From positions 32,001 through 96,000 of IMG/VR virus record IMGVR_UViG_3300035670_000068: a stretch of 64,000 bases of DNA, one strand, 5' to 3'. Of the stretch, positions 1 through 13,178 are shown piece after piece (the stretch's first letter is position 1; each line of letters starts with the position of its first letter). The notes below the pieces were generated by a model that worked only from the letters and a program-made list of their open reading frames with translations, searched no databases and was not told the DNA's origin. The position numbers and the translations under genes were made by a program. Source of the stretch: a virus.

Positions 1-571
1 CAGCGCCCTTCTCTTCCTCGTCGTCGCCCAGGATCGAGTCGATCTCGACCTCGACTTTCTCGGCGGTGAGGTGGGAGAAGTAGCCGGCCAGCTCTTCCTC
101 GTCGATGGGCATGGTCATCAGCAGCTCTTCGGCGCTGCCGATCTCCGGGTCTTGCAGCAGCGCAGAGAAGCGCAGCGCGTCGTCGGAGCCGTAGCGGAAG
201 TTGTCGATCAGAGTCTCGCGCTTGGCGTCGGCATCGCTGATCTTGCCGCGATTGATAACCGGCACTCGGTCGTAGCCCAGAGAGATAGCCGCCATCGTGC
301 GGTGCTGGCCGCCGATGATTTCCAGGGAGCCGTCTTCCAGGGTGCGAACCACGATGGGCCGCTTGATCCCGTCTTTCTGGATCGATGCCTCCAGCTTGAG
401 CTGGTTGATCGGGTCCACGATGTTCGGGTTCCAGGGGTTCGGACGCAGGTCTTTCGGGTTGACCTCTTCCACCTGCATATCGTTGTACGCCAGTGGCAGG
501 TCAGCCGGGGTCAGACCACCCGAGTTCAGGAATGCGTCCAGGTCTTCCAGGTCAGAAAAATCAGTGTTCAT
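1..571 (-). CDS. ParB/Srx-like N-terminal domain protein (3' end outside window)
   Basis: Manual translation MNTDFSDLED...LRPNPWNPN...GIKRPIVVR...EIIGGQHRTMAA; matches the ParBc pattern; not in ORF track because it is truncated. Confidence 0.8.
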   Translation of the reverse strand, partial: MNTDFSDLEDLDAFLNSGGLTPADLPLAYNDMQVEEVNPKDLRPNPWNPNIVDPINQLKLEASIQKDGIKRPIVVRTLEDGSLEIIGGQHRTMAAISLGYDRVPVINRGKISDADAKRETLIDNFRYGSDDALRFSALLQDPEIGSAEELLMTMPIDEEELAGYFSHLTAEKVEVEIDSILGDDEEEKGA

Positions 572-651
572 TGAATTGCCTTGTTGGTGAACTTAACTAA
601 CCACATAGTTATGCTAGAATAACTCTTGACAGTGTTAATCGGAAGTGTTCC

Positions 652-2343
652 ATGTCCAAATTCGTCAAGATTGTGTTCAACCCGGTCATCGCAGCCCTGG
701 TTGAGCCAGATCGTGATGCCAAGCTCCTGGTCAACGATCTTCTGACCTACAAGATCGAGACCGGCATGAAGGGCATGGGCGTAGCTCACGGCTCGATGTT
801 CGATATGAACAAGTGCCGTTTCCCGACAGGCTTCGTTCGCCTGGTCACGAAGAAGCTCGAAGGCGCCGGGTATCGTGTGCAGGTGGTTGGTAAGCCCGCT
901 CCTGAACCTGCAGGCCCGTCCAACCCGGTTGTTGACTCGAACGCGCCGGACCCGCGCTACGACTATCAAGAAGAGACGATGAATCGTCTGGTCGTGCTCA
1001 AGCGCATGATTGCCCAGATCGCAACGGGCGGCGGTAAGTCTCGCACGTTCAAGCTGTGCTGCGAGCGCATCGCCCTCCCCACTCTGTTCCTGACCACTCG
1101 CAAGTCGCTGATGTACCAGATGGCTGCCGGCTATCGAACTGTGAAGTCTGGCCGCCCCGTTGGATTTATCGGTGACGGCCACTGGAAGCCCGAGCCGACC
1201 GGCGTGAACTTCGCCATCGTCGATACCCTGGTTTCTCGTCTTGAGGTCTGCTCTTTCGAGAGCGAGCTGGACAAGGCCGTCACCAAGCACGTCGAGGCGG
1301 TCGAGAAAGAAGTCCAGGCCGCGCTCAAGCGATTCAAGCTGCCGACGAACCCATCGACTCTGCGTCACGCCGACAAGGACACTCTGGCCAAGATCGCCAG
1401 CGTGAGATCGCGCGTGGAGCTTGCGAAGAAGCTCGACGAGAAGGCTCTTCAGGAGAAGATCAAGCGTAAGGTCGAAAAGCAGCAGGCTATTCGCGAAGAA
1501 ACTCTGCAGTTTCTGGCTCAGGTCGGATTCTTGTGCCTCGAAGAAGCGCACGAAGTCTCCGGTCAGGGCTTCTTCGATCTCTGCAACTCGATGCCGAACG
1601 CCCACTACCGCCTGGCTCTGACCGCAACCCCATTCATGAAGGACAGCGAAGAGGCTAATCTGCGCCTCATGGCGGTCACTGGAACGATCGGCATCAAGGT
1701 CAGCGAGAAAGACCTGATCGACCGGGGCATCTTGGCCAAGCCTTACTTCATGATCATGCCGTCGAAGCGCCCAGATGGAGTTTTGCGGGGAACCGCTTGG
1801 CAGGCCGCCTACGAACGCGGAATCGTCTCCAACACGGGCCGCAACATGCAGATCGTCCAGGCTGTTCAGATGGCCCGGCGTTATGGTCTGACCGCGATCA
1901 TCCTGGTGCAGCGAACCAAGCACGGCGAAGAGCTCAAGACCCTACTCAGCAACATCGGCGCTCGAACCGACTTCATCTACGGCGAGAACGAGCAGTCTGA
2001 GCGTCAGGCCGCCCTGGACAAGCTCGGCGCCGGCGAGATCGATGTGCTGATCGGCACCACAATTCTCGACGTTGGTGTGGACTGCCCATCTGTCGGCATG
2101 GTGATTCTCGCCGGTGGCGGCAAAGCAGAAGTGGCTCAGCGCCAGCGAATCGGTCGCGGCCTGCGTGCGAAGAAGTCCGGCCCCAACGTCTGCTTTGTGG
2201 TCGACTTCGACGATGTGTGGAACAACCACACTCACGGCCACTCGGTCGAGCGTCGCAGGATTATCGAATCGACGCCTGGGTTCGCCGAGAACATCGTCCC
2301 CTACTTCGATTTCGAAGGATTGGGCTTCAAGAGAGCCGCCTAA
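652..2343 (+). CDS. Superfamily 2 DNA helicase (UvsW/Rad25-like)
   Basis: Walker A ATGGGKS, motif II EEAH, motif III LTATP, DVGVDCP, motif VI QRIGRGLR. Confidence 0.9.
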   Translation: MSKFVKIVFNPVIAALVEPDRDAKLLVNDLLTYKIETGMKGMGVAHGSMFDMNKCRFPTGFVRLVTKKLEGAGYRVQVVGKPAPEPAGPSNPVVDSNAPDPRYDYQEETMNRLVVLKRMIAQIATGGGKSRTFKLCCERIALPTLFLTTRKSLMYQMAAGYRTVKSGRPVGFIGDGHWKPEPTGVNFAIVDTLVSRLEVCSFESELDKAVTKHVEAVEKEVQAALKRFKLPTNPSTLRHADKDTLAKIASVRSRVELAKKLDEKALQEKIKRKVEKQQAIREETLQFLAQVGFLCLEEAHEVSGQGFFDLCNSMPNAHYRLALTATPFMKDSEEANLRLMAVTGTIGIKVSEKDLIDRGILAKPYFMIMPSKRPDGVLRGTAWQAAYERGIVSNTGRNMQIVQAVQMARRYGLTAIILVQRTKHGEELKTLLSNIGARTDFIYGENEQSERQAALDKLGAGEIDVLIGTTILDVGVDCPSVGMVILAGGGKAEVAQRQRIGRGLRAKKSGPNVCFVVDFDDVWNNHTHGHSVERRRIIESTPGFAENIVPYFDFEGLGFKRAA

Positions 2344-2355
2344 TAGCCCACGAAT

Positions 2356-2380
2356 ACCCCACGAATGCGGGGTTTTTGTT
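2356..2380 (+). terminator. Probable intrinsic terminator
   Basis: ACCCCAC-GAAT-GCGGGGT followed by a T tract after the helicase stop. Confidence 0.55.
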
Positions 2381-2485
2381 GGTGAATCAAAAAAATCTCA
2401 AAAAAGCTGTTGCATACCCGAGAGTCGCTGTGTAAATTTTGCATCGTGTTCAGTAAGCAGTTAGTTAGCGAAGACGGAGACAGCG

Positions 2486-3022
2486 ATGAAGTTCTATGTG
2501 GGCTGCGGCTCTACAGAAGCTCCACCGCAAATCCTCAAGCTGATGTGCAAGCTGGCAGCTCTGATGGATCAACGAGGGTTCACCCTCAGAACCTCAGAGC
2601 AACCTGGGCCGGATGAAGCGTTCAGGCAAGGATCGGGCGGTAAGTTCTTCACCTACCTGGCCGATCAGGACTTCGAAGGGAAAAGCGTGTGGGGTATCCC
2701 CGCCGACATAACCTTCGGTGGAGCACGCTCGGTCCTTGCCCGAAAGCTGAACCCGATGTTTGTGATGCTCCCGGATAGCGAAAAGCGCTGGGAGATCGTA
2801 GCGAATCAGGTGCTGCTCGGTAGCTCAGGCGACGACCTCGCGAAGCTGCTGATTACTTGGACAAAGGACGGCGCGACGAAGCCTGCAGAGTTCACCGAGA
2901 ACACTGGCAACGTCGCAAGGTATCTGAAACTGGCTGATCGCTTCGGCGTGCCGGTGATGAATCTGGCCCGTCGAGATCACCGGGACAAGGCGCTGTCTTG
3001 GCTTGGGTTGAAAAGTAAGTAA
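2486..3022 (+). CDS. Phage DprA/SLOG-like protein
   Basis: N-terminus YVGCGSTEAP...GFTLRTS..GPDEAF resembles phage YAGIGSRETP..LRSGGA.GAD SLOG proteins. Confidence 0.6.
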   Translation: MKFYVGCGSTEAPPQILKLMCKLAALMDQRGFTLRTSEQPGPDEAFRQGSGGKFFTYLADQDFEGKSVWGIPADITFGGARSVLARKLNPMFVMLPDSEKRWEIVANQVLLGSSGDDLAKLLITWTKDGATKPAEFTENTGNVARYLKLADRFGVPVMNLARRDHRDKALSWLGLKSK

Positions 3023-3048
3023 CCGCTTAAATAGAAGGAAAATGTCTC

Positions 3049-3483
3049 ATGCTGGGCAAACTGTTTGGTAAAGGTCGCGAAGCTCGTGCTGCTGTGGCCA
3101 AGCTGGAAAACCGCGACATGATGCAAGCTGCTGTCTACGGCTGCTTCTACGTCGCCTCCGCCGATGGCGAGATCGAAGCTGCAGAGCTGGCGAAGGTCGA
3201 GTCTCTGCTGCGCAACAACCCGGCTCTGTCCGCCTTCGGCGTCGAGCTGAGCAAGGTCATCGATCAGGCCAAAGCTGACTTCCAGGAAGGCGGCGCCCGC
3301 ATCATCCGCATGAACGCCGAGCGCGAGCTGGCTGATCTGGCTCACGATCCGAAGTCTGCCGAAACCGTCCTCAACTTCATGCTGACCGTCTCCGAAGCGG
3401 ACGGCGAGATCGAGGACGCCGAAATGCACGCCCTGGAGCGCGCTGCCGGCAAGATGAACCTGCGTCTCAAGGACTACCTGTGA
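3049..3483 (+). CDS. TerB-family (tellurite-resistance-like) protein
   Basis: Two ADGEIE motifs (VASADGEIEAAE, VSEADGEIEDAE); AAGGA RBS. Confidence 0.85.
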   Translation: MLGKLFGKGREARAAVAKLENRDMMQAAVYGCFYVASADGEIEAAELAKVESLLRNNPALSAFGVELSKVIDQAKADFQEGGARIIRMNAERELADLAHDPKSAETVLNFMLTVSEADGEIEDAEMHALERAAGKMNLRLKDYL

Positions 3484-3734
3484 TCAACAAGATCGCCGGT
3501 GTGTTCGGCACGAAGTTCACCGAGAAGGGTAAGCGGTTCGTCAAGGTTCTGCTTATCGTCTGGGCGCTCTTCATGGTCGTCAGCTTCGTAGCAACCCGGC
3601 TCTTCGCCTGGGGCGTCTGCGAGTGGTACGGCAGTGAGACGGGTCGTGAAGTTCGCTACGCAACCTTCATCGGTTGCATGGTGAAAGTGAACGATACCTG
3701 GGTGCCGCGAAACGAACTTCGCATCGTGCAGTGA
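3480..3734 (+). CDS. Small membrane protein
   Basis: GTGA overlap with the terB stop; one hydrophobic helix. Confidence 0.7.
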   Translation: MINKIAGVFGTKFTEKGKRFVKVLLIVWALFMVVSFVATRLFAWGVCEWYGSETGREVRYATFIGCMVKVNDTWVPRNELRIVQ

Positions 3735-3840
3735 CGGTTTCGAGCCTTTGTCCGCAACAAAGGCTCCATCTGAAAACCTACTGGCTGCTCAAAAGGGCTT
3801 GCCATGACCCGGACTCCACAGTCAGTAGGTTTTCAGATGT

Positions 3841-3917
3841 TGGTGCGTAGCTCAGTTGGTAGTAGCAGGTGACTGTTAATCACCAGGTCGAAGGTTCGAG
3901 CCCTTCCGCACCAGCCA
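3841..3917 (+). tRNA. tRNA-Asn(GTT)
   Basis: Acceptor TGGTGCG/CGCACCA, G discriminator, encoded CCA, anticodon loop CTGTTAA, GTTCGA T-loop. Confidence 0.95.
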
Positions 3918-3929
3918 GTTTGTTTTTGC

Positions 3930-4006
3930 CGGCGCATAGCTCAACTGGACAGAGCATCGGGCTTCTATCCCGTTGGTTGTAGGTTCGAGTCCTACTGCGT
4001 CGGCCA
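3930..4006 (+). tRNA. tRNA-Arg(TCT)
   Basis: Acceptor CGGCGCA/TGCGTCG, loop CTTCTAT, GTTCGAG, CCA end. Confidence 0.93.
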
Positions 4007-4027
4007 CTTGAGATAGAGAGGTTGAAG

Positions 4028-4210
4028 ATGGAAGTGTTGTCTGGCGGTATCGCCACTCTGATGAACGCGCACGACGCCTATAGCGTCAACGCCCCGATTC
4101 ACGAAGCGGAAGGCAATCATGAGCAGGCTCAGTTCTGCCGCGATATGGCTGCCGACCTGCAGCTTTCCATCGTTGCTCTCAAGATGGTTCAGAGTTCCGA
4201 GCCGGTATAG
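4028..4210 (+). CDS. Small hypothetical protein inside the tRNA cluster
   Basis: GAGG RBS, 60 codons, stop lies within the first bases of tRNA-Thr. Confidence 0.5.
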   Translation: MEVLSGGIATLMNAHDAYSVNAPIHEAEGNHEQAQFCRDMAADLQLSIVALKMVQSSEPV

Positions 4211-4276
4211 CTCAGTTGGTAGAGCAGCTGCTTTGTAAGCAGAGGGTCGTGGGTTCGAAACCTACTGCCGGCACCA
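4201..4276 (+). tRNA. tRNA-Thr(TGT)
   Basis: Acceptor GCCGGTA/TGCCGGC, loop TTTGTAA, CCA end. Confidence 0.95.
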
Positions 4277-4283
4277 GAGCAAT

Positions 4284-4359
4284 GCGTAGGTAGCTCAAAT
4301 GGGAGAGCGACGGATTCCAAATCCGTTGGTTGGTGGTTCGACTCCATCCCTGCGCGCCA
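4284..4359 (+). tRNA. tRNA-Trp(CCA)
   Basis: Acceptor GCGTAGG/CCTGCGC, anticodon arm ACGGA-TTCCAAA-TCCGT, CCA end. Confidence 0.93.
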
Positions 4360-4360
4360 G

Positions 4361-4750
4361 ACACCCCTGACCGGGTGGCCCTGAAAGACCTGGATGACTA
4401 CAGGTATCGCTCAGGCTGATGCAGTCGCCCCGAGGGGCTTTCAGCAAGAGAGTGGGCAGTCGAGCGTAAAGCCGCTCAATGCGGAAGGTGAGCTTCCTTA
4501 TCCGAAAGGACGACCGTGGCGACGGGCAACGCAACCCTCCTGGCCGGGTAAAAGACCAGGAAGAGCAACTGCGGTACGTTCGTGGCTGGTGTCATGAGTC
4601 TGCTAGGGTAAGGTGGCTTTCGTGCCGAGCCCAACGTGCAGAGCCGGCCTGCCACCACGAATGAAGGGCGTTTTTTCTCCTTTTACGCCCGAGCAAAGGC
4701 CGGCTACCTCCTGACCTGTCGCCCCGGCAGGAACGAAACTCGCGGGGCTT
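4361..4750 (+). ncRNA. Candidate large structured non-coding RNA (unclassified)
   Basis: No credible ORF; dense hairpins, long-range helices and a crossing pair; sits between tRNA-Trp and a terminator. Confidence 0.6.
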
Positions 4751-4753
4751 CCC

Positions 4754-4800
4754 AGCCCTGGTCTGACACCTCACCCAATCGTCAGACCAGGGCTTTTTTC
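4754..4800 (+). terminator. Intrinsic terminator of the tRNA/ncRNA operon
   Basis: AGCCCTGGTCTGAC...GTCAGACCAGGGCT followed by a T tract. Confidence 0.85.
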
Positions 4801-4968
4801 GTCTGTCAGAAAGCAGCAGCTCGAACAGCGTGGCAAGCGCTCAGATTTGCGCTGTGCTGCGCGATCTCTCTTGACGTGCATCGACGTAGCGCTAGAAAAG
4901 AAAAACGCTCAGAGCGCGAACCCTGAGCGTTTCTGTGAAGCTGGAGATCGATCGTTAGGCGAGCGCTT

Positions 4969-5442
4969 TCATACGAACCCCCAGCTCTCGATATCGAAGG
5001 TCTTGATGCGACCACCAGAGAAGCAGTCCAGCTCGCAGGCCACCTTGACCGCTTCGGTAGCAGACTTGCCCAGAGACATTGCTGCCATCGCGAAGTCTGT
5101 ACCGCTACCGATGGCCACCGGGCTCTCAGTCGGCATGGGGACCAGACGATGCTCCAGGACGAACGCTTCGCCAGTCTCCAGGATCAGCAGGCCGCTCATT
5201 TCACCCGGCTCGAACTCGGGGATCATTTCGCAGTCGTGCAGATCGTTGCCTTCCAGGTGCTTCTTGAGCAGCAGGATCGACTCGTAGCTGCCGGCGCCAG
5301 CGAGAACAGCTTTAACTTCGACACCGTTGGCGCGAGTGACCAGCGGGAAAATCTTCTGGGTGGACTTGGCTGAGATCAGGTTGCCGAGCGTTGCGCGACC
5401 ATCAGCGGCCAGGAACTGTCCGTCGAATGCGACTGTGGTCAT
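4969..5442 (-). CDS. HslV/proteasome-beta-like Ntn-hydrolase
   Basis: Real start MTTVAFDG..LAADGRAT (N-terminal Thr nucleophile), AIGSGTDFA, LDCFSGG. Confidence 0.8.
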   Translation of the reverse strand: MTTVAFDGQFLAADGRATLGNLISAKSTQKIFPLVTRANGVEVKAVLAGAGSYESILLLKKHLEGNDLHDCEMIPEFEPGEMSGLLILETGEAFVLEHRLVPMPTESPVAIGSGTDFAMAAMSLGKSATEAVKVACELDCFSGGRIKTFDIESWGFV

Positions 5443-5684
5443 CAGAAGCCCTCCGGGCAGGCGACAGCGCGAGTGATCGCCATGAAGCCCTTCTGCAGAT
5501 CGGTCGTGCCGATGCTCAGCCAGCGCATATCGATCTGGTGTCCGCCAGTTTGGTAGTGAGTCGCTTCCAGGTAGGTGATCAGGTCTTTCACCTCCTGGGC
5601 CTTGGCCTTGATCTTGTTGATGCAATCGATCTCGTCCTCGGTCAGATCGCGATAGCCCTTGATCAGACGATGCTGATTATCCAT
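5442..5684 (-). CDS. acb2: Anti-CBASS cyclic-nucleotide sponge Acb2
   Basis: MDNQHRLIKGYRDLTEDEI...RWLSIGTTDLQKGFMAITRAVACPEGF closely matches recalled Pseudomonas phage Acb2 (MDNQHKKIKGYRDLS...[27 protein letters not shown]). Confidence 0.9.
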   Translation of the reverse strand: MDNQHRLIKGYRDLTEDEIDCINKIKAKAQEVKDLITYLEATHYQTGGHQIDMRWLSIGTTDLQKGFMAITRAVACPEGF

Positions 5685-5703
5685 TCCGCCACCTACTGCA
5701 AAG

Positions 5704-5721
5704 TAACTAAGTAGTTAGTAT
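5704..5721. promoter_or_regulatory. 18-bp palindromic operator-like site (representative of ~25 copies)
   Basis: TAACTAA-GTAG-TTAGTAT between the divergent acb2 and glutaredoxin genes. Confidence 0.7.
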
Positions 5722-5757
5722 TATATCACTTTGCCGAATATGCCCATAAGGAGCCCT

Positions 5758-6030
5758 ATGTTCACCGTTTATTCCATGCCCAACTGCCCGGACTGCATGA
5801 ACGCCAAAAACCTGCTCAAGCGAGAAGGCATGGAGTTCCAAGAGAAGGTCGCTGGCCAAGATTTCACGCGCGAAGAGCTGGTAGACCTGATCGGCCCGGT
5901 ACGCACTCTCCCGCAGATCACTCGCTCTACCGAAGAGGGTCTGTTTCACATCGGCGGCTATCGTGATTTGGTGGCTCTGATGAACGGCGGAGGCTCTACC
6001 GTGCGCAAAATCGAGCAGCCGGTCGTCTGA
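5758..6030 (+). CDS. Glutaredoxin (NrdH/NrdC-like)
   Basis: CPDC active site, TLPQI, HIGGY; AAGGAG RBS. Confidence 0.9.
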   Translation: MFTVYSMPNCPDCMNAKNLLKREGMEFQEKVAGQDFTREELVDLIGPVRTLPQITRSTEEGLFHIGGYRDLVALMNGGGSTVRKIEQPVV

Positions 6031-6230
6031 TCGTTGTGTCAAAAATTCGCGATGTTGGTTGCTGAAACCTCTTTTAGCCTCTAACGTGCGCGGCCTTTGC
6101 GGTTTGTTCTCCACACTATCCCGCATCCCCGAACCAAGGCAGAACCAGACTTGGTTCGGGTTTTTTCCCGCCTAGACTTCTTCGCGTCTATAACGGTGAC
6201 AGAGCAACCACGAAAAACGAGGTATCTGTC

Positions 6231-6452
6231 ATGCACTTTCTTATCGCAACCAGCCCGCAAGGTCATCGACTGGTTGACTTCGGCGACGAGATCATGAGGC
6301 TCAAAACCTCGATGAACGCCTACCTGGAGAGCCATATCGGCCACCAGCCGGCGATCTTTAACGAAAAAATGGTTCGGGACGCTTTCCTCTGTGACGAGTA
6401 CGGCGTCCCGATTCAAGACGACGGATATCTGATCCGTCTCGACGATCTCTGA
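6231..6452 (+). CDS. Hypothetical protein
   Basis: GAGG RBS, 73 aa. Confidence 0.55.
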   Translation: MHFLIATSPQGHRLVDFGDEIMRLKTSMNAYLESHIGHQPAIFNEKMVRDAFLCDEYGVPIQDDGYLIRLDDL

Positions 6453-6467
6453 CAGGATCGAGGAAGG

Positions 6468-7205
6468 TTAGGCGTTCAGCTTCGCTCTGCTGAGCGCCTG
6501 GCTTGCCAGCTTAGAGACCAGCCCGCCGTTTGCTTTGCTTCTTGCCTGCAGAGCGTTCTCCCGCAAAACAGCCCCCTTCGCAATGAAGTCAGCCACGTCA
6601 TCGTTCAGAACGCTCACGCGCATGGCTTCGTCACGCATGATCAGCAGCTCACCCTCGGACACTTCTCGATAGGGATCGGGGTCGTCTCGATTGATCCGGC
6701 TCTCGATGACCAAGGCTGTAGCGATGCGAGAGATCAGCAGCTCCTGGTCTGCAGCAACCTTTCTGTCGCTCCCAATCGTGACGCTCTTTGTCTTGCCCAC
6801 CAAGGGCGAGTACACGCTGCAATACATGAACGGGGTAGCGTCAACCACCTTCCAGTGCAGCTTCACACGGTCGCTGAGCATGATCGGCTGCGCGTGCTTG
6901 CACTGAGCGTCGTTGCGGTTGACCAGCTTCACTGCTTTGCCGACCTTCTTGAGCTGGCCAAGCTCGGACTCGATACGCCGGATGACTGCAGCCAGGCTTT
7001 CAGCCGGATCGACGCCGGCATCAGATACCGAGCCGGAAATCAGCACCTGACCCTTGCGCTCGATCTTGATCTGCCAGGAATTGCTCTTGTAGTTCCGGGC
7101 GACACCTCGCGGAACGAGCATGAGCCTGTCGTTGACTTCGATTTGACGCGCCGGGAACTTGGTATCGCCGATTACCAGGTGCTGAGCTTGTTTGCTTTCG
7201 GACAT
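6468..7205 (-). CDS. Hypothetical protein
   Basis: 245-aa ORF with AGG RBS. Confidence 0.7.
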   Translation of the reverse strand: MSESKQAQHLVIGDTKFPARQIEVNDRLMLVPRGVARNYKSNSWQIKIERKGQVLISGSVSDAGVDPAESLAAVIRRIESELGQLKKVGKAVKLVNRNDAQCKHAQPIMLSDRVKLHWKVVDATPFMYCSVYSPLVGKTKSVTIGSDRKVAADQELLISRIATALVIESRINRDDPDPYREVSEGELLIMRDEAMRVSVLNDDVADFIAKGAVLRENALQARSKANGGLVSKLASQALSRAKLNA

Positions 7206-7303
7206 TTTTCTACCTGTGTGTTATTCGCTGAGTTTTACGGCCAATATATTTGGCTCTGTTCTATAAAGCGTTATGTCGCAAAGTATATAGTGTTAAAACC
7301 GTT

Positions 7304-7693
7304 TTAGAAACCTTCTTGTCCCCATCCAGTGCCAGGCATTTCGTAGCTGTAGTACAGGCCGATCTCTTCGTAGGTCGGGATCGCCAGTGCGCAGTCATCT
7401 TCCTCTGCAGGGTGAGCGAACCGAGTCTTGCGAATCGGACAGACCGGGAACTCGCCCTTCTCAGTGCGCACCTGGAGAATGCCGTCGCGACCCGAGATCA
7501 CGATCTCACCCTCTGGGTAGAAGTAGTGAGCGATCTTGATCCAGCCAGTCTTCGCTTCTCTGCGAGCCTTTTCTTCTGATTCGCGCTCCTTCCGGCACTC
7601 GTCGCACTCTTCCTTCAGATAGCCGCCCATTTCATGCCCAGAGCGCACAGAGGGCGTATTTGCAGCGGTCGCGTACACGCATTTACAGGTCAT
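7304..7693 (-). CDS. Hypothetical protein (Cys pairs)
   Basis: Overlaps the upstream gene in an operon; CxC and CxxC. Confidence 0.6.
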   Translation of the reverse strand: MTCKCVYATAANTPSVRSGHEMGGYLKEECDECRKERESEEKARREAKTGWIKIAHYFYPEGEIVISGRDGILQVRTEKGEFPVCPIRKTRFAHPAEEDDCALAIPTYEEIGLYYSYEMPGTGWGQEGF

Positions 7694-8102
7694 GTTTGTC
7701 TACCTTCTTGAACAACGTCGGACTGATGGTTTCTTCGCCATTGGTGATCGTCTGAAAGCCTTTGCCTAGCAGGTGATCACGCAGACGATGGTTGTTGATC
7801 GACTCGACCACTACAGCGTCGTAACCCCGGAGGCGAGCGAGCATCTTCAGGTTCTCCAGCAGCTCTTTGAAAATGCTCTGGCTTCTGCGACGAGGGTCTA
7901 CCTCAATGGTCGCTATCGTGATCACCTTCAGCATTTCGCCCTTGCACATGCGAACCTGAGCCCGAGCGTAGAGGTTGATCGGCGCGTAGCAGAGCCATCC
8001 AGACTTGGACGAGAAGTAGTTCTTGGCGCTTATGTCGTCGATCATCTGCTCCACATTGCGAACGATGAACCCGATAGCGCCTTTGGCTTCCAGATCAATC
8101 AT
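7683..8102 (-). CDS. GNAT-like acetyltransferase
   Basis: IATIEVDPRRRSQSIFKELL..YDAVVVESINN resembles GNAT motifs A and B. Confidence 0.55.
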   Translation of the reverse strand: MIDLEAKGAIGFIVRNVEQMIDDISAKNYFSSKSGWLCYAPINLYARAQVRMCKGEMLKVITIATIEVDPRRRSQSIFKELLENLKMLARLRGYDAVVVESINNHRLRDHLLGKGFQTITNGEETISPTLFKKVDKHDL

Positions 8103-8406
8103 GTTTGCTCACCAACCTGTAGATATCCTGCTCGTACAGCGAGTTCGGATAAATCGCTTCGCCCTGAGCCAGACAAGTGTGTATATCGCGCAGCAGCTCA
8201 AGCGCCTTTTCCAGCGTGACTCTCGCCGGTTCCTGGCTCAGCTTGTTGATCTTGCCCTTGAGTCTGGCGATCTCAGCCTTCTGTTCGAAGATTAGCTCCT
8301 GGTCACGCGCCCAAGCCGCTTGCGCTGTTTCGAGAGTGTTGGGAGCTTGTTCGCCACGCGCAAACTGAGCGCTATGTGCTCGCCAATCGATTGGTTTGTC
8401 GGTCAT
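8095..8406 (-). CDS. Hypothetical protein
   Basis: Coupled operon ORF. Confidence 0.6.
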   Translation of the reverse strand: MTDKPIDWRAHSAQFARGEQAPNTLETAQAAWARDQELIFEQKAEIARLKGKINKLSQEPARVTLEKALELLRDIHTCLAQGEAIYPNSLYEQDIYRLVSKHD

Positions 8407-8627
8407 GGCAGTTCCTCAAAGTGGTCTGAGTGAAGCATGTAACGGTTAAGCGACCCTTCGACCTCGACAGCCCAGAAGTCCTCCGAATCGATGTAATCGC
8501 TATCGCTGACCCAGGTGATTTTGGTTTCAGCAGCGCACTTGGCGTCTTCCTCAGAAGTGACCAAACCCCCTCTCCAGCCCTCCCGTGAGAGCTTTACGCG
8601 CTGACCTACAAATGGCTTGCTCTTCAC
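8403..8627 (-). CDS. Hypothetical protein
   Basis: Coupled operon ORF. Confidence 0.6.
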   Translation of the reverse strand: MKSKPFVGQRVKLSREGWRGGLVTSEEDAKCAAETKITWVSDSDYIDSEDFWAVEVEGSLNRYMLHSDHFEELP

Positions 8628-8836
8628 GACAGGTACTCCATAGCAGCGTCGTAAACGGCAGCGGCGTCTTTGCCCGCTTGGACGACTGCTTCGCGAAGCG
8701 CGGCGTCGTCCAATGGGTCGAGATCGCCTTTTGCCACCATGTTCGTCACGATCTCAGTGGCTATCTCGCGTATCCGCTTGGTGCGCTCGTTTGCTTTCTG
8801 TTTGGCAATCGCCGGCTCAATCCAACTATCGTCCAT
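8624..8836 (-). CDS. Hypothetical protein
   Basis: GGAG RBS; first gene of the operon. Confidence 0.65.
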   Translation of the reverse strand: MDDSWIEPAIAKQKANERTKRIREIATEIVTNMVAKGDLDPLDDAALREAVVQAGKDAAAVYDAAMEYLS

Positions 8837-9105
8837 TTTGCTTACTCCGCTTGGTTGTGAAAGGTTAGCTCCGTAGCCCGCTCTCCCCTATTCCCGTTTT
8901 CGTCGTGACTCCCGGCAGTCCCATAACCCGTAGGTTGTGTAAGGGGTGAGGTTCTAGATTCCTCCTGCCGGCTGTGTAAGGACGACTTCCGGGTATTCGG
9001 CTCGCAGGCTCCTGTAGGGCCAGACTGTTAAACTTTTTTCTAAGACTTTGACACTTTGCATATATGCGCAAGTGTTCTAGATTCACACTCGCATATATAC
9101 ATATA

Positions 9106-9285
9106 TTATTGTTCGATAATATCATTCATCGCTTTAATATATAACTTCGCGCTTATTGCTTTAAGTGCGCGCATTTTCATCAGCTCAAACAATTGCGCTG
9201 CAACTTCAAACGATACAACTTTAACGCGATACTTCGTACTAACAATTACGCAGTCAGCGTTAATAACTCGAATATTGATGCTCAT
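9106..9285 (-). CDS. 59-aa protein lacking Gly/Pro/Trp
   Basis: MSINIRVINADCVIVSTKYRVKVVSFEVAAQLFELMKMRALKAISAKLYIKAMNDIIEQ*; GAGAG RBS-like; below the ORF-track cutoff. Confidence 0.5.
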   Translation of the reverse strand: MSINIRVINADCVIVSTKYRVKVVSFEVAAQLFELMKMRALKAISAKLYIKAMNDIIEQ

Positions 9286-9358
9286 ATATAATCTCTCGCT
9301 TATTTAATTATATATCTAGTGAGTTAGCTATTAACTAACTCACTAGATAGTGTACAAG

Positions 9359-9904
9359 TTACTTGCTGTAAACTTCGAGCAATGCTTTCAGAAACGCATT
9401 GCTATAATCGAAAGTTACTTTCTTATCACTTGCGCTGTACTGCGCGAAGCTAAAGAACTGAGCGAAAGTCTTAAAGTAGCTTGCTTGCGTCAGCGTTTCG
9501 TGCTGCATCTCGCGCTTGATCTGTTCGAGCGTCAAGCTAGCGTCGTGCTTTGCTGCGAGTCGCTGCAGCAGCGCGTCAAGCGCTTTGTCGCGTACTCGCG
9601 CAGAGTGCGCGACAGCTTCGAGCATTGCGATAGAACGCTTCTTACACTCGCGCGACTGCTGAGCGAGCTGCTTAGCGTCGAGCTTGTGCGAGTGCAGCAG
9701 CGCTAGCGCTTTTTCGCTCATATCTGCGAGCGCTTGAGTGTAAGTCTCGTGAGTGTGAGCGCGCTTTGCTGTTTTAGTGAGTGCGTCGCGCTCTTCTTGA
9801 GCTTCGACACTTTCGAGCTTTTGCAGCGCTTCATTTTTAACGCTTTCGTGCTCGTTAGCAGCTACAGCGAAAACATTCTTGATTGCTTCGATTGCTTTAG
9901 TCAT
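9359..9904 (-). CDS. 181-aa helical protein lacking Gly/Pro/Trp
   Basis: Start MTKAIEAIK preceded by AGAGAGAG; downstream of sigma70-like promoters; inside the GG/CC-free island. Confidence 0.75.
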   Translation of the reverse strand: MTKAIEAIKNVFAVAANEHESVKNEALQKLESVEAQEERDALTKTAKRAHTHETYTQALADMSEKALALLHSHKLDAKQLAQQSRECKKRSIAMLEAVAHSARVRDKALDALLQRLAAKHDASLTLEQIKREMQHETLTQASYFKTFAQFFSFAQYSASDKKVTFDYSNAFLKALLEVYSK

Positions 9905-10073
9905 GATTTTTCTCTCTCTTGAAAATTGCGCTTTTTGCGCTATTGATTTAAGTTTGATTTTCTTTGCTTCATTGTGCGCGACAGACTGCGCGCAGATAAA
10001 GCATCGATCTAGATTGTTAAAGAGCGTCGAGCTTTTCAGCTCTAGAGAGTGTGTTTCGTCTCTCTTGATGCAC

Positions 10074-10218
10074 AGTTTACAGCGTACAGGAACAGCGTCA
10101 AGCGTTTTTTGAGAAAAAATAGAATTTTTTCGACTTTTTTTAGTGCTCAAAAAATGATCAGTTTTGACTATCTATTACATGCGCGCACGCGAGTAGGACA
10201 GCTAGAAAAGTCTGTCAA
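10074..10218 (-). promoter_or_regulatory. Tandem sigma70-like promoters with A/T-tract UP elements
   Basis: TTGACG-16-TAAACT (10101-10074) and TTGACA at 10218-10213; both preceded by the same AAAAAACGC repeat. Confidence 0.6.
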
Positions 10219-10269
10219 GCGTTTTTTGTGCAAAATAGAAAATTCGCAAAAGTCAAGAAGATTTTTTTG

Positions 10270-10400
10270 GGTGAGGATCATCCGCATCGGCGGGCCGTCC
10301 GCACTTGAGGAACTCCCACGGATAAGGAAGGACCACGGTTGAGGATGATCCGCATCCGGGTCCACAGCCGTGGGTGAGGACGATCCGCATCCGCAGCCAA
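10270..10400 (+). repeat. Three direct repeats of TGAGGA(T/C)(C/G)ATCCGCATC
   Basis: Copies near 10272, 10340 and 10375. Confidence 0.75.
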
Positions 10401-10603
10401 GGGCGATCCTCAACCGAGGATCAGCCGTGGTGGTATGGCGCTCCCGCCACGGGGCTTGTTCATCCGGCAGCCTTATACCTAAAGGCCGCCATAGGAAAAT
10501 TCCTGGGCCACGGCTATCCCTATATAGGCGCTATGGAAACTCCCACGGTGACTCCCGGACTGACAAAAGAGCAGCTGCGGTGAACAACTGCTCTTGGCTG
10601 TGA

Positions 10604-10840
10604 TCAGTATTCAGCGGTCATGCTGACGAGATCATGGGGATCGTCTTGGTAGTAGTCGTCGAACAGCTTGGCGATAGCTCGCTCTTTGTCGGTGAGCACA
10701 ACAAACGGTCGTTCGTTCAGGTGCTCAGAGAAGACTTGAAAGTTGGCAGACGGGATGTGCTCGATGCGGCGTTCGACGATCTCGACGGTCAGCATGTCGG
10801 TGGATTCGTCGTACTGGACTACGGTGATTTCGTTTTTCAT
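10604..10840 (-). CDS. Hypothetical acidic protein
   Basis: 78-aa ORF with GAGA RBS-like sequence. Confidence 0.6.
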   Translation of the reverse strand: MKNEITVVQYDESTDMLTVEIVERRIEHIPSANFQVFSEHLNERPFVVLTDKERAIAKLFDDYYQDDPHDLVSMTAEY

Positions 10841-11075
10841 CTGGTTTCGATCTCTCGGTCTGTTCAGCGTCGAAGTGCGCTGAATCAGAGCGCATTTTAT
10901 CGTGCTGAGAACGGCAAGAGACGGCTCCTAAGCGTTTAGACGAGCTCACCCACGGGTTTTCTCAAACCTCGCTCAAAACGGCTTATAGAGCGTTCTAGAG
11001 GGGTATGCGCGTGGCCGGAATCCGGTGGACTGGACCTTACACGCGCATGGCCTGGTTTATATGGACTGGACCTGG

Positions 11076-11360
11076 TTAGACCAGCTCTTCCAGGCGAACC
11101 GACTTCTTGGACGGTGCTCGGGTCTGGAAGTCTTCCTGAGAAACGGGCTTGTACGTCCCGGCTTCGAGCTCGGCCAGGTATTTTTCCCATTCAGCTTGCT
11201 TGAGGTTGGCGGGTTTCTTACCAGGCTTCTGGTTCAGGATGGGCTTGATGTTTTCAGGGCTGGCGTAGCGGGTGACCTCCCCGCCGTAAATCTGCTCGTA
11301 GCGCTCGGTTTCGTGAGCGAGCATGGCGCGTAGTGCTTCTTTGCTCATGGCTTTACTCAT
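11076..11360 (-). CDS. Hypothetical protein
   Basis: GGGAG RBS, 94 aa. Confidence 0.65.
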   Translation of the reverse strand: MSKAMSKEALRAMLAHETERYEQIYGGEVTRYASPENIKPILNQKPGKKPANLKQAEWEKYLAELEAGTYKPVSQEDFQTRAPSKKSVRLEELV

Positions 11361-11561
11361 GGTTGAAGACTCCCGTTTGGTTTAGCTGATTCATCTGGCA
11401 GCGTCTAGCGCGCTGCTCAGACTTGAGTCTATCAACTATCTAACGGGCTAGTGAGTCTTGCGTAACTAAGCCCTTAGTGCTACCGGGTGCCAAGGGAGCC
11501 GTGGTGTGCCGTGGGTAAGCCTGCTCAAAAGAGAGCACCGTTGTAGGCGCTCTCCGGTAGA

Positions 11562-11798
11562 TCACTGACCAAAAACAGCCGCTGCTGGTTCGATTCGGCC
11601 GTAGTCTATGTCGGCAGCCCAGCACTGAATCTTGCCGTTCACATAGTTCACCGCTTCTTGCAGATTGGTGAACGTCTCATGATCCACCAGCTCGTTGATT
11701 TCGCTGTACTGGTGAAAGTCGTACAAGCCGTTTGCTTTCAAGGTGATCTCGAACAGATCACCCATGAAGTTGGCCTTGAAGATAACCATGTTTGCCAT
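11562..11798 (-). CDS. Hypothetical protein
   Basis: Start MANMVIF after GAGAGAAG. Confidence 0.6.
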   Translation of the reverse strand: MANMVIFKANFMGDLFEITLKANGLYDFHQYSEINELVDHETFTNLQEAVNYVNGKIQCWAADIDYGRIEPAAAVFGQ

Positions 11799-12303
11799 TT
11801 TTGCTTCTCTCGTCAGTGCAGCCTCTAGCGTGCTGCTCGACTTGTATTGTCTCAACTGACAAGCGGCATGAGCTGGCTCCCGGAGAGTGGTAACTGGCTA
11901 GCCGTGGTGCAGCCGTGGGTGAGCCTTATCCTGGGTAGACCTTGGTTCTGCCGTGGCGATGATCCGGGATTTACCGAGTGCCTACTGGTAAGCCGTGGTG
12001 CAGCCTATTCAGGTAGTGCCGTGGCTCACCAGGACTGCCAAGGTGTGCCTTGGAGCTGCCACGGTTGCCGTGGGTATTTCTACGGCAGCGCCTAACCGTG
12101 GCTAATTGGAAACCCAGCCTTATATATAAAAGGCCCTATGGAAAAATTCCCGCGCATGTACATGCCGTGGCGTGTATAGGCAAAAAAATAGCCCGATTAG
12201 AGGGGTTAGCTCTAACCGGGCTCAACAGTCAGTGGTTCGGGGAGACTGACTGAAACGAGAGGGAGGGTATTACAGCGCGCCCCCTGCCTGGCGCTGAAAC
12301 CGT

Positions 12304-12405
12304 TTAGCTGAGCTTGTTCCTGATCTTGACCAGTTCCCGGTGGCAATCGATCAGCTTGAACCAGACCAGTAGTAAGACTATTACACCAAGAGCCACTGGA
12401 ACCAT
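12304..12405 (-). CDS. 33-aa membrane peptide
   Basis: MVPVALGVIVLLLVWFKLIDCHRELVKIRNKLS*; AGG RBS; terminator-like hairpin downstream at 12182-12221. Confidence 0.4.
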   Translation of the reverse strand: MVPVALGVIVLLLVWFKLIDCHRELVKIRNKLS

Positions 12406-12878
12406 TTTGCGACCTATCTCTTTAGGTGCAGACTGGTTAAAAATCTAACCAGTCTATACTCAATCTTTTAGCCAGCTGACTGACGTTCTGTCTGTCTCGC
12501 TGCTCAGTTACTAGAACTATACAGACTGACTAGAGGCTGATCTTGTCTGCCAGGTAGGTAGAACTGTAATTCCAGAGGCATTACTACAGGTTGCCGTGGC
12601 AAAGGATAGAAACCACAACCAGACCAATCTAGTCTCGTACCTGTGTGTACCAGCGCACCCGTGGCCGGAATCTCATGGACTGGACCAAGCCTGGTAGCCA
12701 AGGACCGATGGACTCCTGTTCTGGTGAATGGGAGAGCGGTTAGAACGAGAGCGGGCTGCCGGGTGGTGTAAGAAAAGTTTTAGAACGGCTGAACGCACGA
12801 TGATTTGAATACAACCACCCCACCAATCTTTACTCTTACCTATTACACATCCCCTCTATGGTTCTCCATTTCCTTCCC

Positions 12879-13178
12879 CTATACCCAACCGTCTCTCTTT
12901 ACCAGATTCGTTTCATCCTCTAGCCATACGAAGCTAACCTCTCCTGGTGTTCTCTCACTAGGCATTGGTTGTCTCATATAGGGCGGAGGCTCAATTTCTA
13001 TTGCTGTGCATTGGGTAAGGTGCTTTACCTCTATTGGGTTTGTGACGCCTATGAGGTGCAGCCACAGATTGTCGTCGCTGTCTTGTCCTATGTAGCCGAT
13101 CTTCCAGTCGTGGTACTGGTTGAGCATGATCCAGTAGTGCTTACCGGCTTCAAGGTTCTCTTGCTTGAGTATGTTCAT
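12879..13178 (-). CDS. Hypothetical protein
   Basis: 99-aa ORF in the minus-strand array. Confidence 0.6.
   Translation of the reverse strand: MNILKQENLEAGKHYWIMLNQYHDWKIGYIGQDSDDNLWLHLIGVTNPIEVKHLTQCTAIEIEPPPYMRQPMPSERTPGEVSFVWLEDETNLVKRDGWV

Follow-up and report, generated by a model that had tools for sequence, protein, structure and literature searches.

A minus-strand phage transcription unit kept free of GG and CC dinucleotides, and the cell factor it may be evading

The window analysed here is a 64,000-nt stretch (positions 32,001 to 96,000 of IMG/VR record IMGVR_UViG_3300035670_000068) of a Pseudomonas-type phage genome of 110,316 bp. Between window positions 9020 and 10089 neither GG nor CC occurs for 1,069 nt. 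This island is a single insulated transcription unit on the minus strand (Table 1) and is probably expressed first, as an immediate-early unit, to judge solely from its promoter-like sequences. The spacer of the proximal promoter P1 holds the last sense-strand CC before the island (GG at 10089 on the plus strand), and transcription would start near 10067. In the AT-rich zone upstream the plus-strand CC-free gap continues, spanning 9020-10282, and up to 10268 the sole sites are two plus-strand GG, at 10089 and 10196, the second of which follows a TTGACA with a poor -10 hexamer. The hairpin behind the lead gene overlaps an internal promoter-like site (9334..9307) detected in the promoter scan. 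At the 3' end, the GTCAAAGTCTTAGA motif, which occurs once in the genome, reads as a -35-like TTGTCA with a 17-nt spacer and a weak -10, and GG/CC return immediately past the island (GGCCCTA). The CCTTACACA boxes of the adjoining leader agree with the DnaA-box consensus TT[AT]TNCACA (taken from bioRxiv 10.1101/866236) at 7 of 9 positions, a likeness in sequence only; the genome holds four copies, all on one strand, and related loci carry 2-5 copies at the same place. On the promoter side, the non-coding repeat block is built from the repeat families D2, D4, D6, D9 and I1, and 19 of the 27 genome copies of CCACGG/CCGTGG are found within window positions 10316-12659. An Rfam scan of window positions 8300-12900 returned nothing credible.

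Table 1. Features of the GG/CC-free unit and its surroundings, in window coordinates and in sense order.
Feature	Position	Strand	Content or basis
Half-protected neighbouring unit: gene of a 78-aa acidic protein (10840..10604), leader and terminator (10592..10563)	10555..10927	-	
GG/CC-rich non-coding repeat block	10283..10560		Repeat search; just upstream of the island in the sense direction; three GAGGATGATCCGCATCC-like repeats, CCACGG/CCGTGG boxes, 41-nt module recurring at 12115
AT-rich upstream promoter zone	10089..10282	-	Sense strand: no GG, few CC
Second A-tract and CGCTTGACA element	-35 at 10218..10213	-	Repeat D8 at 10097 and 10214
Proximal promoter P1, TTGACG-16-TAAACT	10101..10074	-	Promoter scan; predicted sigma-70-type
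5' leader of the island mRNA	9905..10066	-	Ribosome-binding site GAGAGAG instead of GGAG; repeat D10
Lead gene, 181 aa	9904..9359	-	ORF; no Gly, Pro or Trp
Palindrome/hairpin, 18-bp arms (I3)	9313..9349		Directly past the stop codon of the lead gene
Cargo gene, 59 aa	9285..9106	-	ORF; no Gly, Pro or Trp
Island 3' end	9022..9105	-	Conserved motif GTCAAAGTCTTAGA at 9039-9052
Two CCTTACACA boxes	8930..8985 (at 8936 and 8973)	-	In the GG/CC-rich leader 3' of the island

About 102 GG and CC dinucleotides were expected in the island from its base composition and none was observed (Poisson P ~5e-45). The next longest gap in the window, two shorter in-island gaps set aside, measures 89 nt. When all dinucleotide classes were compared over the whole genome, this was the single island of its kind, and no other class showed a gap of comparable length. 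Genome-wide, GG and CC are mildly depleted (o/e 0.78-0.81). The GC content is 0.44 in the island vs 0.56 in the window, and the steps GC (o/e 2.28) and CG (1.65) are over-represented in the island; relative to the genome AG rises from 1.18 to 1.38 and CT from 1.07 to 1.23, while GA and TC are depleted. GATC occurs in the island, as do the palindromes GCGC (25 vs 2.4 expected), CGCG (15), AGCT (13), TCGA (12) and CTAG (7). When the 181-aa protein was recoded 2,000 times following the codon usage of the genome, GG/CC averaged 53 and never fell below 32, compared with the observed zero. The phage purges motifs generally, 28 of the 64 six-base palindromes being absent genome-wide, GG/CC-containing ones among them; general restriction-site avoidance was ruled out as the cause of the island, in which four-base palindromes are enriched. 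Unstructured mRNA was likewise rejected as a reason, the predicted folding energy of the island mRNA being -348 kcal/mol vs -255 for shuffles (z = -10.7) and -288 for GG/CC-free shuffles.

A sequence-only reading made beforehand had described an absence of GG and CC over some 1070 nt from 9022, G and C still common as GC and CG with GATC present, a 181-aa and a 59-aa ORF devoid of Gly, Pro and Trp, rewritten ribosome-binding sites and abrupt borders. All of this held up: the two ribosome-binding sites read GAGAGAG and GAGAGA in place of GGAG, and the change at the borders is abrupt to the nucleotide. Its placing of both remaining GG in promoter spacers was right for 10089, in view of the good promoter whose spacer includes it, and only partly so for 10196 with its poor -10. 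Chance or an assembly artefact, another possibility to be considered, is ruled out because independent GenBank phages and metagenome contigs carry the same island.

The AF2 model of the lead protein (pLDDT 94.9) predicts an N-terminal long helical hairpin followed by a C-terminal winged-helix domain with the order H-S-H-H-S-S. Residues 102-181 matched best to TubR (Z 8.1, rmsd 2.4 Å over 74 residues), and the winged-helix matches to TubR, AntR, SarA, MarR and CadC together covered Z 6.8-8.1 and rmsd 2.4-3.1 Å over 69-78 residues; since these Z values are middling, we take them to indicate a shared fold only. The lead gene thus looks like one for a winged-helix protein of a regulatory or DNA-binding type. 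Its sequence matched no Pfam family at E < 0.1 and no PHROG family, and Foldseek E-values were 0.1-0.6; 18 close and 45 remote relatives were identified. The 59-aa cargo protein was modelled with three short strands and one long helix (AF2 pLDDT 87.8), has 13 relatives at 72-100% identity and found no match in a PDB fold search, Pfam or PHROG. The scans of Pfam and PHROG with the neighbouring proteins gave no family either.

Ten related loci keep a ban over 0.66-1.5 kb at 36-60% protein identity, one of them (L009) being leaky with a few sites. The known hosts are pseudomonads, and only six nickieviruses are present among the GenBank phages. Nothing further came from querying viral contigs with P0050, P0024 and P0040 as single proteins or from the profile queries A2 and A3, which were too divergent, and a metagenome scan returned redundant loci only. 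The lead gene evolves with a dN/dS of 0.15-0.32, and dS between lineages ranges from 0.45 to saturation, so that synonymous sites are near or past saturation; selection therefore maintains the ban. The sequence-only reading had proposed to ask whether substitutions among homologues avoid creating GG/CC, and the ban is indeed kept in related islands across this synonymous divergence. Cargo genes of apparently unrelated types (59/63 aa, 73 aa, 99-108 aa and 110 aa) are all GG/CC-free; the ban attaches to the slot rather than to any one gene. The motif-free zone suggested earlier is accordingly supported as a zone kept by selection; the cassette inside it is proximal to the promoter, is probably the first to be expressed and has small genes that can be exchanged. 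On the tree of the lead protein family the presence of the ban requires at least 3 changes, and 9 by parsimony, and it appears from this tree to have been gained or lost repeatedly; locus L016 holds a member of the same family without any ban.

The borders of the islands follow transcription signals, a point that emerged from the comparison of loci. A P1 element (TTGCAC-16-TAGAAT/TAATAT) is conserved in nine related loci, and in these GG/CC-free DNA starts at or before the -10 hexamer of P1, past which 646-1,095 nt are without sites. The last GG/CC lies within the P1 spacer in 6 of 10 phages, and in L011, L013 and L014 the ban starts 25-150 nt upstream of P1. Every related island has a strong GG/CC-free hairpin after the lead gene, its stems made of GC and CG steps only. 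In an alignment of eight loci, GG/CC return 15-34 nt after the start of the 3' motif in seven, and in L012 the first GG/CC stands 10 nt ahead of it; in L011 and L015 the motif is contained in an 18-19-bp hairpin, and its pattern found no match in Nican01 and phiK7B1.

The neighbouring 78-aa unit obeys the ban on one strand: its sense strand contains no GG and 25 CC, which makes it the second-longest plus-strand CC gap of the genome (372 nt vs 149 nt for the next), and the first GG is back 7 nt past the T-run of its terminator. Sense GG is banned and sense CC free also in the upstream gene of L009, the lead gene of L019 and the divergent 97-aa gene of L015, as well as in leaders of the window, L011 and L014, so that five or more units show a one-stranded ban. 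Every half-protected neighbouring unit thus bans sense GG, equal to template CC, whatever the gene orientation, a strand rule newly recognised here. A second new point comes from L017, where each of the 11 GG that survive belongs to GGA and each of the 13 surviving CC to TCC, two words that are reverse complements of each other. Taken together, borders at transcription signals, the sense-GG rule and the tolerance of GGA/TCC favour a strand-aware reader of DNA over a desert of double-stranded PAM or restriction sites. A Cas3-direction model of the strand bias was ruled out, since the repeats that separate the 78-aa unit from the island are full of CC on the relevant strand.

The explanation that we tentatively prefer is an insulated immediate-early unit that is kept GG:CC-free by continuing selection against a cell factor recognising this step. 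A factor in the infected cell would recognise GG:CC, and one hit would be enough to stop the unit. Since a two-letter word cannot be removed from 110 kb, it would be purged solely from the unit that is needed before other functions, which would amount to immunity by target absence. The proposed order runs from terminator hairpins through stacked host-type promoters, the winged-helix gene and a hairpin to exchangeable small cargo and the conserved 3' element. The reader would most likely act on DNA in a strand-aware manner, with 5'-CC-3' on one strand as its target (5'-VCC-3' in one lineage), and the hit may leave behind a nick, an adduct or a complex that is tightly bound. On the template strand such a hit would abort the transcript, which would explain why sense GG is banned everywhere and sense CC only in the core unit; the ban on both strands within the core unit is accommodated only ad hoc. 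For the GG/CC-full rest of the genome to survive until a counter-measure is in place, the DNA would have to enter in stages, or the reader would have to be slow or inducible.

We put forward with a little more reserve that the reader is an undescribed nucleic-acid-targeting activity, specific for GG:CC (GGB:VCC in one lineage), strand-aware and active in the first minutes of infection, which phages may counter by a target-free first unit. To our knowledge, no bacterial reader with GG:CC or VCC specificity has been characterised, and we found no published account of such GG/CC-free islands. [quoted passage not shown] Modification of virion DNA at GG/CC such that host RNA polymerase is blocked was weakened as a candidate, because the purging of six-base palindromes that contain GG/CC is what unmodified DNA would show.

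If the reader acted on RNA, identical borders would be expected, and the ban would again fall primarily on sense GG. Here an endoribonuclease or RNA-binding factor, belonging to a host defence or to the phage's own host shut-off, would recognise GG (and CC) in transcripts, and the earliest mRNAs, being site-free, would survive and be translated. Such a factor would fit borders that are those of the transcript, with the -10 of the promoter at one end and the 3' hairpin at the other, a 78-aa unit free of GG exactly until its terminator, a ban on the sense strand in either gene orientation, ribosome-binding sites rewritten to GAGAG, and promoter spacers that are untranscribed and may hold sites. 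We nevertheless consider it unlikely. The symmetry of GGA and TCC in L017 is natural for duplex DNA, whereas RNA would need two unrelated motifs or a protected antisense RNA; the predicted hairpin stems are site-free as well, though a single-strand-specific RNase should tolerate GG:CC pairs there; and in the three loci named above the ban begins upstream of P1. Avoidance of CsrA/RsmA, which recognises GGA, is excluded because GGA is the tolerated word in leaky lineages. We know of no RNase specific for GG/CC.

The sequence-only reading had inferred a PAM desert or motif-free zone that protects a first-injected or first-expressed anti-defence cassette. In a PAM desert, the CC/GG PAM read by type I-F (or NGG-type) CRISPR-Cas would be kept out of the unit so that the first-needed cassette cannot be targeted; a Cascade roadblock would account for the strand bias. 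The avoided word equals the I-F PAM in size and sequence, the known hosts are pseudomonads, and the layout, with variable small genes and a conserved HTH-type gene behind a promoter, is reminiscent of acr-aca operons. The mild genome-wide depletion of GG/CC resembles that reported for P. aeruginosa phages (PMC12174588), and in T5 CRISPR is effective solely on first-entering DNA (bioRxiv 10.1101/866236). Depletion of CC, the type I-F PAM, in P. aeruginosa phages is, however, statistical and genome-wide in the published work, never absolute and local (PMC12174588, PMC4246573). Sites in the P1 spacer of 6 of 10 phages would permit targeting of the promoter, and the half-protected units are strictly one-stranded while type I/II cleavage is strand-blind. 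A plain double-stranded I-F/NGG desert is not supported by these observations or by the restriction of L017 to GGA/TCC. CC PAM readers are not known to show such a tolerance; those known to us do not read the base flanking CC. A further point against the desert is that the product of the lead gene is predicted to be a DNA-binding protein with a winged helix and is not recognisable as an anti-defence protein; the cargo proteins matched no Pfam or PHROG family. We regard the PAM desert as quite unlikely.

We give only small weight to the reading of the island as a T5-like first-step-transfer segment, a tip that enters first and waits. The reader would then be a nuclease, either one that degrades host DNA and is the phage's own or co-injected, or any nuclease of the host. 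Injection would be stopped by the 3' element and the CCTTACACA boxes, with the winged-helix protein licensing the remaining genome to enter. The PhageTerm class of Nican01, 'DTR (long)', is that of T5 (PMC11256456), and the stacked promoters look like those at the leading ends of the T7 and T5 genomes. The 3' cis-element is highly conserved and occurs once in the genome, the DnaA-box-like repeats recall the T5 injection stop signal, and second-step transfer in T5 needs the small DNA-binding protein A2. Against this, the first-step-transfer DNA of T5 itself bears no GG/CC ban: positions 1-9600 show o/e values of 1.14 for GG and 1.03 for CC with a longest gap of 99 nt, and Gly, Pro and Trp are normally represented in the pre-early proteins. 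The first 100 kb of SSU5 are free of such a ban too. Contig ends near the island (L012, L013) proved uninformative as physical termini, the G001 terminal repeat being a 127-nt assembler overlap, and Nican01 has no published terminus coordinates. The one-stranded neighbours and the GG/CC-rich repeats lying between the island and the 78-aa unit also fit poorly with a simple motif-free tip.

Self-avoidance is very improbable. The winged-helix or another phage protein would nucleate on the CCACGG/iteron blocks and spread on GG/CC DNA, its own operon being site-free against silencing; related to this is a physical behaviour of GG/CC-free DNA in packaging or ejection. Dense GG/CC-rich repeat blocks do flank the island, and the best fold match of the C-terminal domain, TubR, is a centromere-binding protein. 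Binding to double-stranded DNA cannot, however, explain one-stranded bans bounded by terminators, structural or affinity effects need no absolute ban, and L016 has a relative of the lead protein family without any ban. Least credible is a mutational scar, by which a CC-specific cytosine deaminase or similar damage on heavily transcribed DNA would convert CC to CT/TC on both strands in each generation: the enrichment of AG/CT, the depletion of GA/TC and the AT-richness of the island agree with it, but the borders are abrupt to the nucleotide, purifying selection accompanies a ban that stays absolute across saturated synonymous divergence, G and C are still abundant as GC and CG, and a deaminase on the exposed non-template strand predicts that sense CC is lost first while the primary ban is on sense GG. 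The deaminase scar and packaging need offered as alternatives in the sequence-only reading both fit poorly.

A dinucleotide ban that costs three amino acids and a normal ribosome-binding site is an extreme signature of selection. It implies a GG:CC reader for which neither the described defences nor the described host-takeover systems account, and it may mark the genes that a large phage must express ahead of all else. For tracing the reader by genetics, concrete starting points are the strand rule, the survival of GGA/TCC and the existence of natural relatives that either have or lack the ban. If the island stands at the entering DNA tip, the principle of a vulnerable leading region known from T5 and T7 would extend to a new phage group and a much shorter motif; if the proposal of an undescribed reader is true, the islands would be a genomic footprint by which the reader and an island-encoded counter-measure could be found.

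Compared with known systems, the island shares with PAM depletion and restriction-site avoidance that selection removes short words read by defences, as also seen in the missing six-base palindromes of this genome; the published cases are genome-wide and statistical, whereas the island is local, absolute, bounded by a unit, partly one-stranded and tolerant of sites in promoter spacers. It resembles acr-aca operons in that one short operon behind a strong early promoter combines a conserved HTH-type gene with small, exchangeable partners whose fold is unknown. The gene order is the opposite, since the conserved gene leads in the island, and the island proteins gave no Acr/Aca match in the Pfam and PHROG scans. 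We are aware of no dinucleotide ban described for acr loci.

Like the island, which probably is expressed first, the first-step-transfer DNA of T5 and BF23 groups the earliest genes in a small block that has strong host-type promoters and adjoins conserved non-coding repeats; these contain DnaA-type boxes, which the CCTTACACA boxes resemble in sequence. The T5 segment extends over ~10 kb without a dinucleotide ban, whereas the island's ban is two-letter and absolute, with three amino acids lost and a strand-specific component. No homologue of A1, A2 or dmp was recognised among the island and neighbour proteins in the Pfam and PHROG scans. In T5, the action of EcoRI and CRISPR is confined to first-step-transfer DNA (bioRxiv 10.1101/866236), and as only this DNA is vulnerable, absence of targets there protects the whole phage. 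In Autographiviridae, similarly, absence of a type I restriction-modification motif from the leading region, which is injected first and enters by transcription, suffices for escape even if the motif is present elsewhere, and these leading regions are variable and carry anti-defence genes (PMC12455610). Stacked early promoters are common to such T7-like leading regions and the island; the T7-like case concerns a 6-7-nt bipartite restriction-modification motif with a known reader, whereas the word of the island is 2-3 nt long and belongs to a 110-kb siphovirus of another lineage.

GG and CC were both absent from window positions 9021-10088, a gap of 1,069 nt with none of the ~102 sites expected from base composition; leaving aside two shorter gaps within the island, the next-longest GG/CC-free gap in the window measured 89 nt. 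Up to position 10268 just two plus strand GG were found, at 10089 and 10196, and Gly, Pro and Trp were missing from both the 181-aa lead gene and the 59-aa gene behind it, all of which confirmed the description given by the sequence-only reading. Its further claim that AT richness is not the cause also held: GC content was 44% in the island and 56% in the window, and because GC and CG steps were over-represented in the island (observed/expected 2.28 and 1.65, respectively) we are dealing with a single-step ban. Short palindromes (GCGC, CGCG, AGCT, TCGA) were abundant and the ban is therefore specific to GG/CC. The virus record is complete (110,316 bp, of which the window covers 32001-96000) and contains no second such island and no comparable gap for any other dinucleotide class. 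Rewriting the 181-aa protein with the genome's own codon usage (2,000 trials) gave a mean of 53 and a minimum of 32 GG/CC as compared to 0 in the real gene; the constraint thus extends beyond amino-acid content to the choice of codons and their junctions. For the island mRNA (9040-10066, minus strand), much more structure was predicted than for shuffled sequences (MFE -348 versus -255 kcal/mol, z = -10.7; GG/CC-free shuffles, -288 kcal/mol), likely because adjacent G and C are possible only as self-complementary GC/CG runs.

Parts of the GG/CC-free unit and its upstream region, in sense direction (window coordinates)
Feature	Coordinates	Strand	Placement
GG/CC-rich repeat block	10560-10283		first part in sense direction
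AT-rich zone with two A-tract + CGCTTGAC elements		minus	after repeat block
Proximal promoter P1 (predicted)	10101..10074	minus
Leader, 160 nt, with GAGAGAG ribosome-binding site		minus	between P1 and lead gene
Lead gene, 181 aa	9904..9359	minus
Palindrome with 18-bp arms			after lead gene, before 59-aa gene
59-aa gene	9285..9106	minus
Conserved 3' motif GTCAAAGTCTTAGA	9052..9039	minus	last island part

Promoters, terminators and DnaA-like boxes were called at consensus level. P1 is conserved (TTGCAC, 16 nt, TAGAAT/TAATAT), and in 6 out of 10 phages the last GG/CC sits within its spacer, with the next 646-1,095 nt past the -10 hexamer being site-free; for the remaining phages, the start of the island is 25-150 nt upstream of P1. 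At the 3' border, sites reappear 15-34 nt past the start of the motif in 7 of the 8 loci in which it was matched, and L012 has its first site 10 nt before the motif; the pattern was unmatched in the nickieviruses Nican01 and phiK7B1. Terminator-like GG/CC-free hairpins were found just upstream of P1 in several phages. Based on these borders and hairpins, the island is, as far as predicted signals tell, a transcription unit that is insulated from its surroundings and served by stacked host-type promoters, and it is probably expressed first. Related phages carry zero, one or two small cargo genes behind the lead gene, belonging to apparently distinct families (59/63 aa; 73 aa; 99-108 aa ending in YAH/FAH; 110 aa) that all obey the ban, and strong hairpins right behind the lead-gene stop codon keep it with stems built from GC/CG steps only. 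What carries the ban is therefore the slot (the transcription unit) rather than any single gene.

In the window, GG/CC are back immediately past the 3' motif, followed by two CCTTACACA boxes. These lie in a GG/CC-rich leader (8860-9020, GGCCCTA...) that is conserved in related phages and for which an Rfam scan was empty; CCTTACACA has four copies in the genome, on one strand only (window -3565, 8936, 8973 and 36202), and may represent weak DnaA boxes or part of a structured 5' leader. On the upstream side, 19 of the 27 genome copies of CCACGG/CCGTGG fall within 10316-12659, distributed over two non-coding blocks (10316-10548; 11902-12170). The blocks have in common a 41-nt module (at 10468 and at 12115) as well as several shorter repeats and resemble paralogous regulatory or iteron-like modules upstream of early units.

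The 181-aa protein matched no Pfam or PHROG family and had 18 close and 45 remote relatives, every one on phage-sized contigs. In its predicted fold (pLDDT 94.9), a long helical hairpin at the N terminus is followed by a winged helix at the C terminus; residues 102-181 align domain-wide to TubR (Z 8.1, 2.4 Å), AntR, SarA, MarR, CadC and Csa3 with weak Foldseek E-values, which supports a shared DNA-binding fold without family membership. The 59-aa protein (13 relatives) was predicted to form three short strands and one long helix (pLDDT 87.8), for which the fold search returned no structural match. Pfam and PHROG scans returned no known anti-defence or other family for the lead, 59-aa, cargo or neighbouring proteins. 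A 139-aa ORF (7683-8102, minus) situated downstream of the island, a few genes away, gave a weak GNAT acetyltransferase match below the family cut-off (Pfam E 0.015). The window also encodes a plus strand tRNA cluster (3841-4359; Asn(GTT), Arg(TCT), Thr(TGT), Trp(CCA)) and Nican01 carries tRNAs for Met, Asn, Gly, Asp and Trp. A tRNA-Trp, for an amino acid missing from the island proteins, is thus supplied by both phages.

At the DNA level, GenBank relatives were limited to nickieviruses (112-kb P. syringae siphoviruses, ~66% identity), with homologous GG/CC-free gaps of 1,083 nt in Nican01 and 1,115 nt in phiK7B1. Eleven viral loci with relatives of the 181-aa protein were recovered: L010-L014 (50-60% protein identity) have islands of 0.9-1.5 kb, L015 (36%) has one of 0.66 kb, L009 has a leaky island with few sites, and L016-L019 (36-38%) are without island. 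Nican01, phiK7B1 and L010-L015 thus keep the ban at this locus despite their divergence. An attempt to extend the trait to SSU5 (first 100 kb) was negative. Between island-bearing lineages dS ranged from 0.45 to saturation and dN/dS from 0.15 to 0.32; purifying selection therefore acts on the lead gene as a real protein, and the ban owes its persistence to active maintenance rather than inheritance. At most one Gly/Pro/Trp was present in 32 of 61 full-length family members, and on the maximum-likelihood tree this poor state changed at least 3 times on well-supported branches (9 by parsimony).

Neighbouring units revealed a strand rule, which is new here. The genome's second-longest one-strand gap (372 nt without plus strand CC, 10555-10927) spans a 78-aa gene on the minus strand together with the leader and the predicted intrinsic terminator of that gene, and the first GG reappears 7 nt past the T-run; the mRNA of this unit has 0 GG versus 25 CC. 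Avoidance of sense GG with CC kept was likewise seen in the leaders of L011, L014 and the window, in the gene that lies upstream of the island in L009, and in the L019 lead gene, which has 15 GG (13 of them GGA) versus 32 CC. The seeming exception, L015, was resolved by a divergent minus-strand gene that is GG-free on its own sense strand; this 97-aa gene (4363-4656) adjoins the island, lacks Gly, Pro and Trp and is sense GG-free over 524 nt with CC present. In all half-protected units, the banned word is sense GG (i.e. template CC), whatever the gene orientation; only in the core unit are both GG and CC banned on the sense strand.

The most fitting reading of the island is that of a target-free immediate-early unit. 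As it is impossible to purge a two-letter word from 110 kb, the phage would have purged it just from the unit that must work ahead of its other functions. The postulated reader would act on DNA in a strand-aware manner, and a template-strand hit at 5'-CC-3' (a nick, adduct or bound complex) would abort transcription; the GG/CC-rich rest of the genome would survive only given staged DNA entry or a slow reader. One DNA reader would yield the transcript-shaped borders, the primary sense-GG ban, the reverse-complement symmetry in L017 and the site-free hairpin stems. For the added sense-CC ban of the core unit there is only an ad hoc explanation, we know of no such GG:CC reader, and we put the model forward tentatively.

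In the leaky L017/L023 lineage, the few sites left in the lead and second genes were GGA in 11/11 GG and TCC in 13/13 CC, a finding which is new here. As GGA and TCC are mutually reverse-complementary, the avoided word in this lineage is GGB:VCC, a symmetry natural for duplex DNA. Avoidance of CsrA/RsmA-type GGA binding is excluded by this tolerance. The ban is graded among distant relatives: L017 (4760-5764) tolerates GGA/TCC alone, L019 (4851-5852) bans GGB on the sense strand only and L016 is fully normal, making the three natural comparators in the search for the reader.

An RNA-level nuclease reading the word would fit the island borders and the strand rule, but neither the GGA/TCC symmetry nor the site-free hairpin stems, and is doubtful. 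A type I-F PAM desert, which fits in word and host genus, is improbable, as it accounts neither for sites within P1 spacers nor for one-stranded units and the GGA/TCC tolerance; to our knowledge, CC PAM readers do not read that flanking base, and such tolerance is not among their known properties. The strand rule is unpredicted by any plain double-stranded PAM or restriction desert. Of the proposals in the sequence-only reading, a motif-free zone, here one kept by selection, is thus supported and a plain double-stranded PAM desert is not. Still less probable is a T5-like first-injected DNA tip, which would be compatible with the target-free unit as the reason for its timing: Nican01 was classed as 'DTR (long)' (PMC11256456), and the conserved 3' element and DnaA-box-like repeats recall the T5 injection stop, but T5's own first-step-transfer DNA has no GG/CC ban. 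A deaminase scar, also raised by the sequence-only reading, and avoidance of the phage's own DNA-binding protein were both judged unlikely.

Across the 110,316-bp genome, 28 of 64 six-base palindromes are entirely missing (391 copies expected in total), including AGATCT (0 versus 43 expected), GACGTC (0 versus 40) and CCATGG (0 versus 29), and CTCGAG (1 versus 69) and AAGCTT (1 versus 37) are nearly so. The missing set has members with and without GG/CC; Nican01 lacks 16 of 64, 11 of which are also missing here. This unusually thorough, lineage-specific loss of restriction sites indicates that the phage DNA is unmodified and under heavy nuclease pressure, which the lineage habitually answers by site removal.

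PAM depletion as published is statistical and genome-wide (PMC12174588, PMC4246573), and our literature search turned up no description of a dinucleotide ban that is both absolute and local. In T5, EcoRI and CRISPR strike only the first-step-transfer DNA (bioRxiv 10.1101/866236), and in T7-like phages a leading region without the type I restriction-modification motif suffices for escape (PMC12455610). As a target-free immediate-early unit, the island would follow the same published logic. T7 and T5 likewise have stacked host-type promoters at their leading ends, like those predicted at the island.
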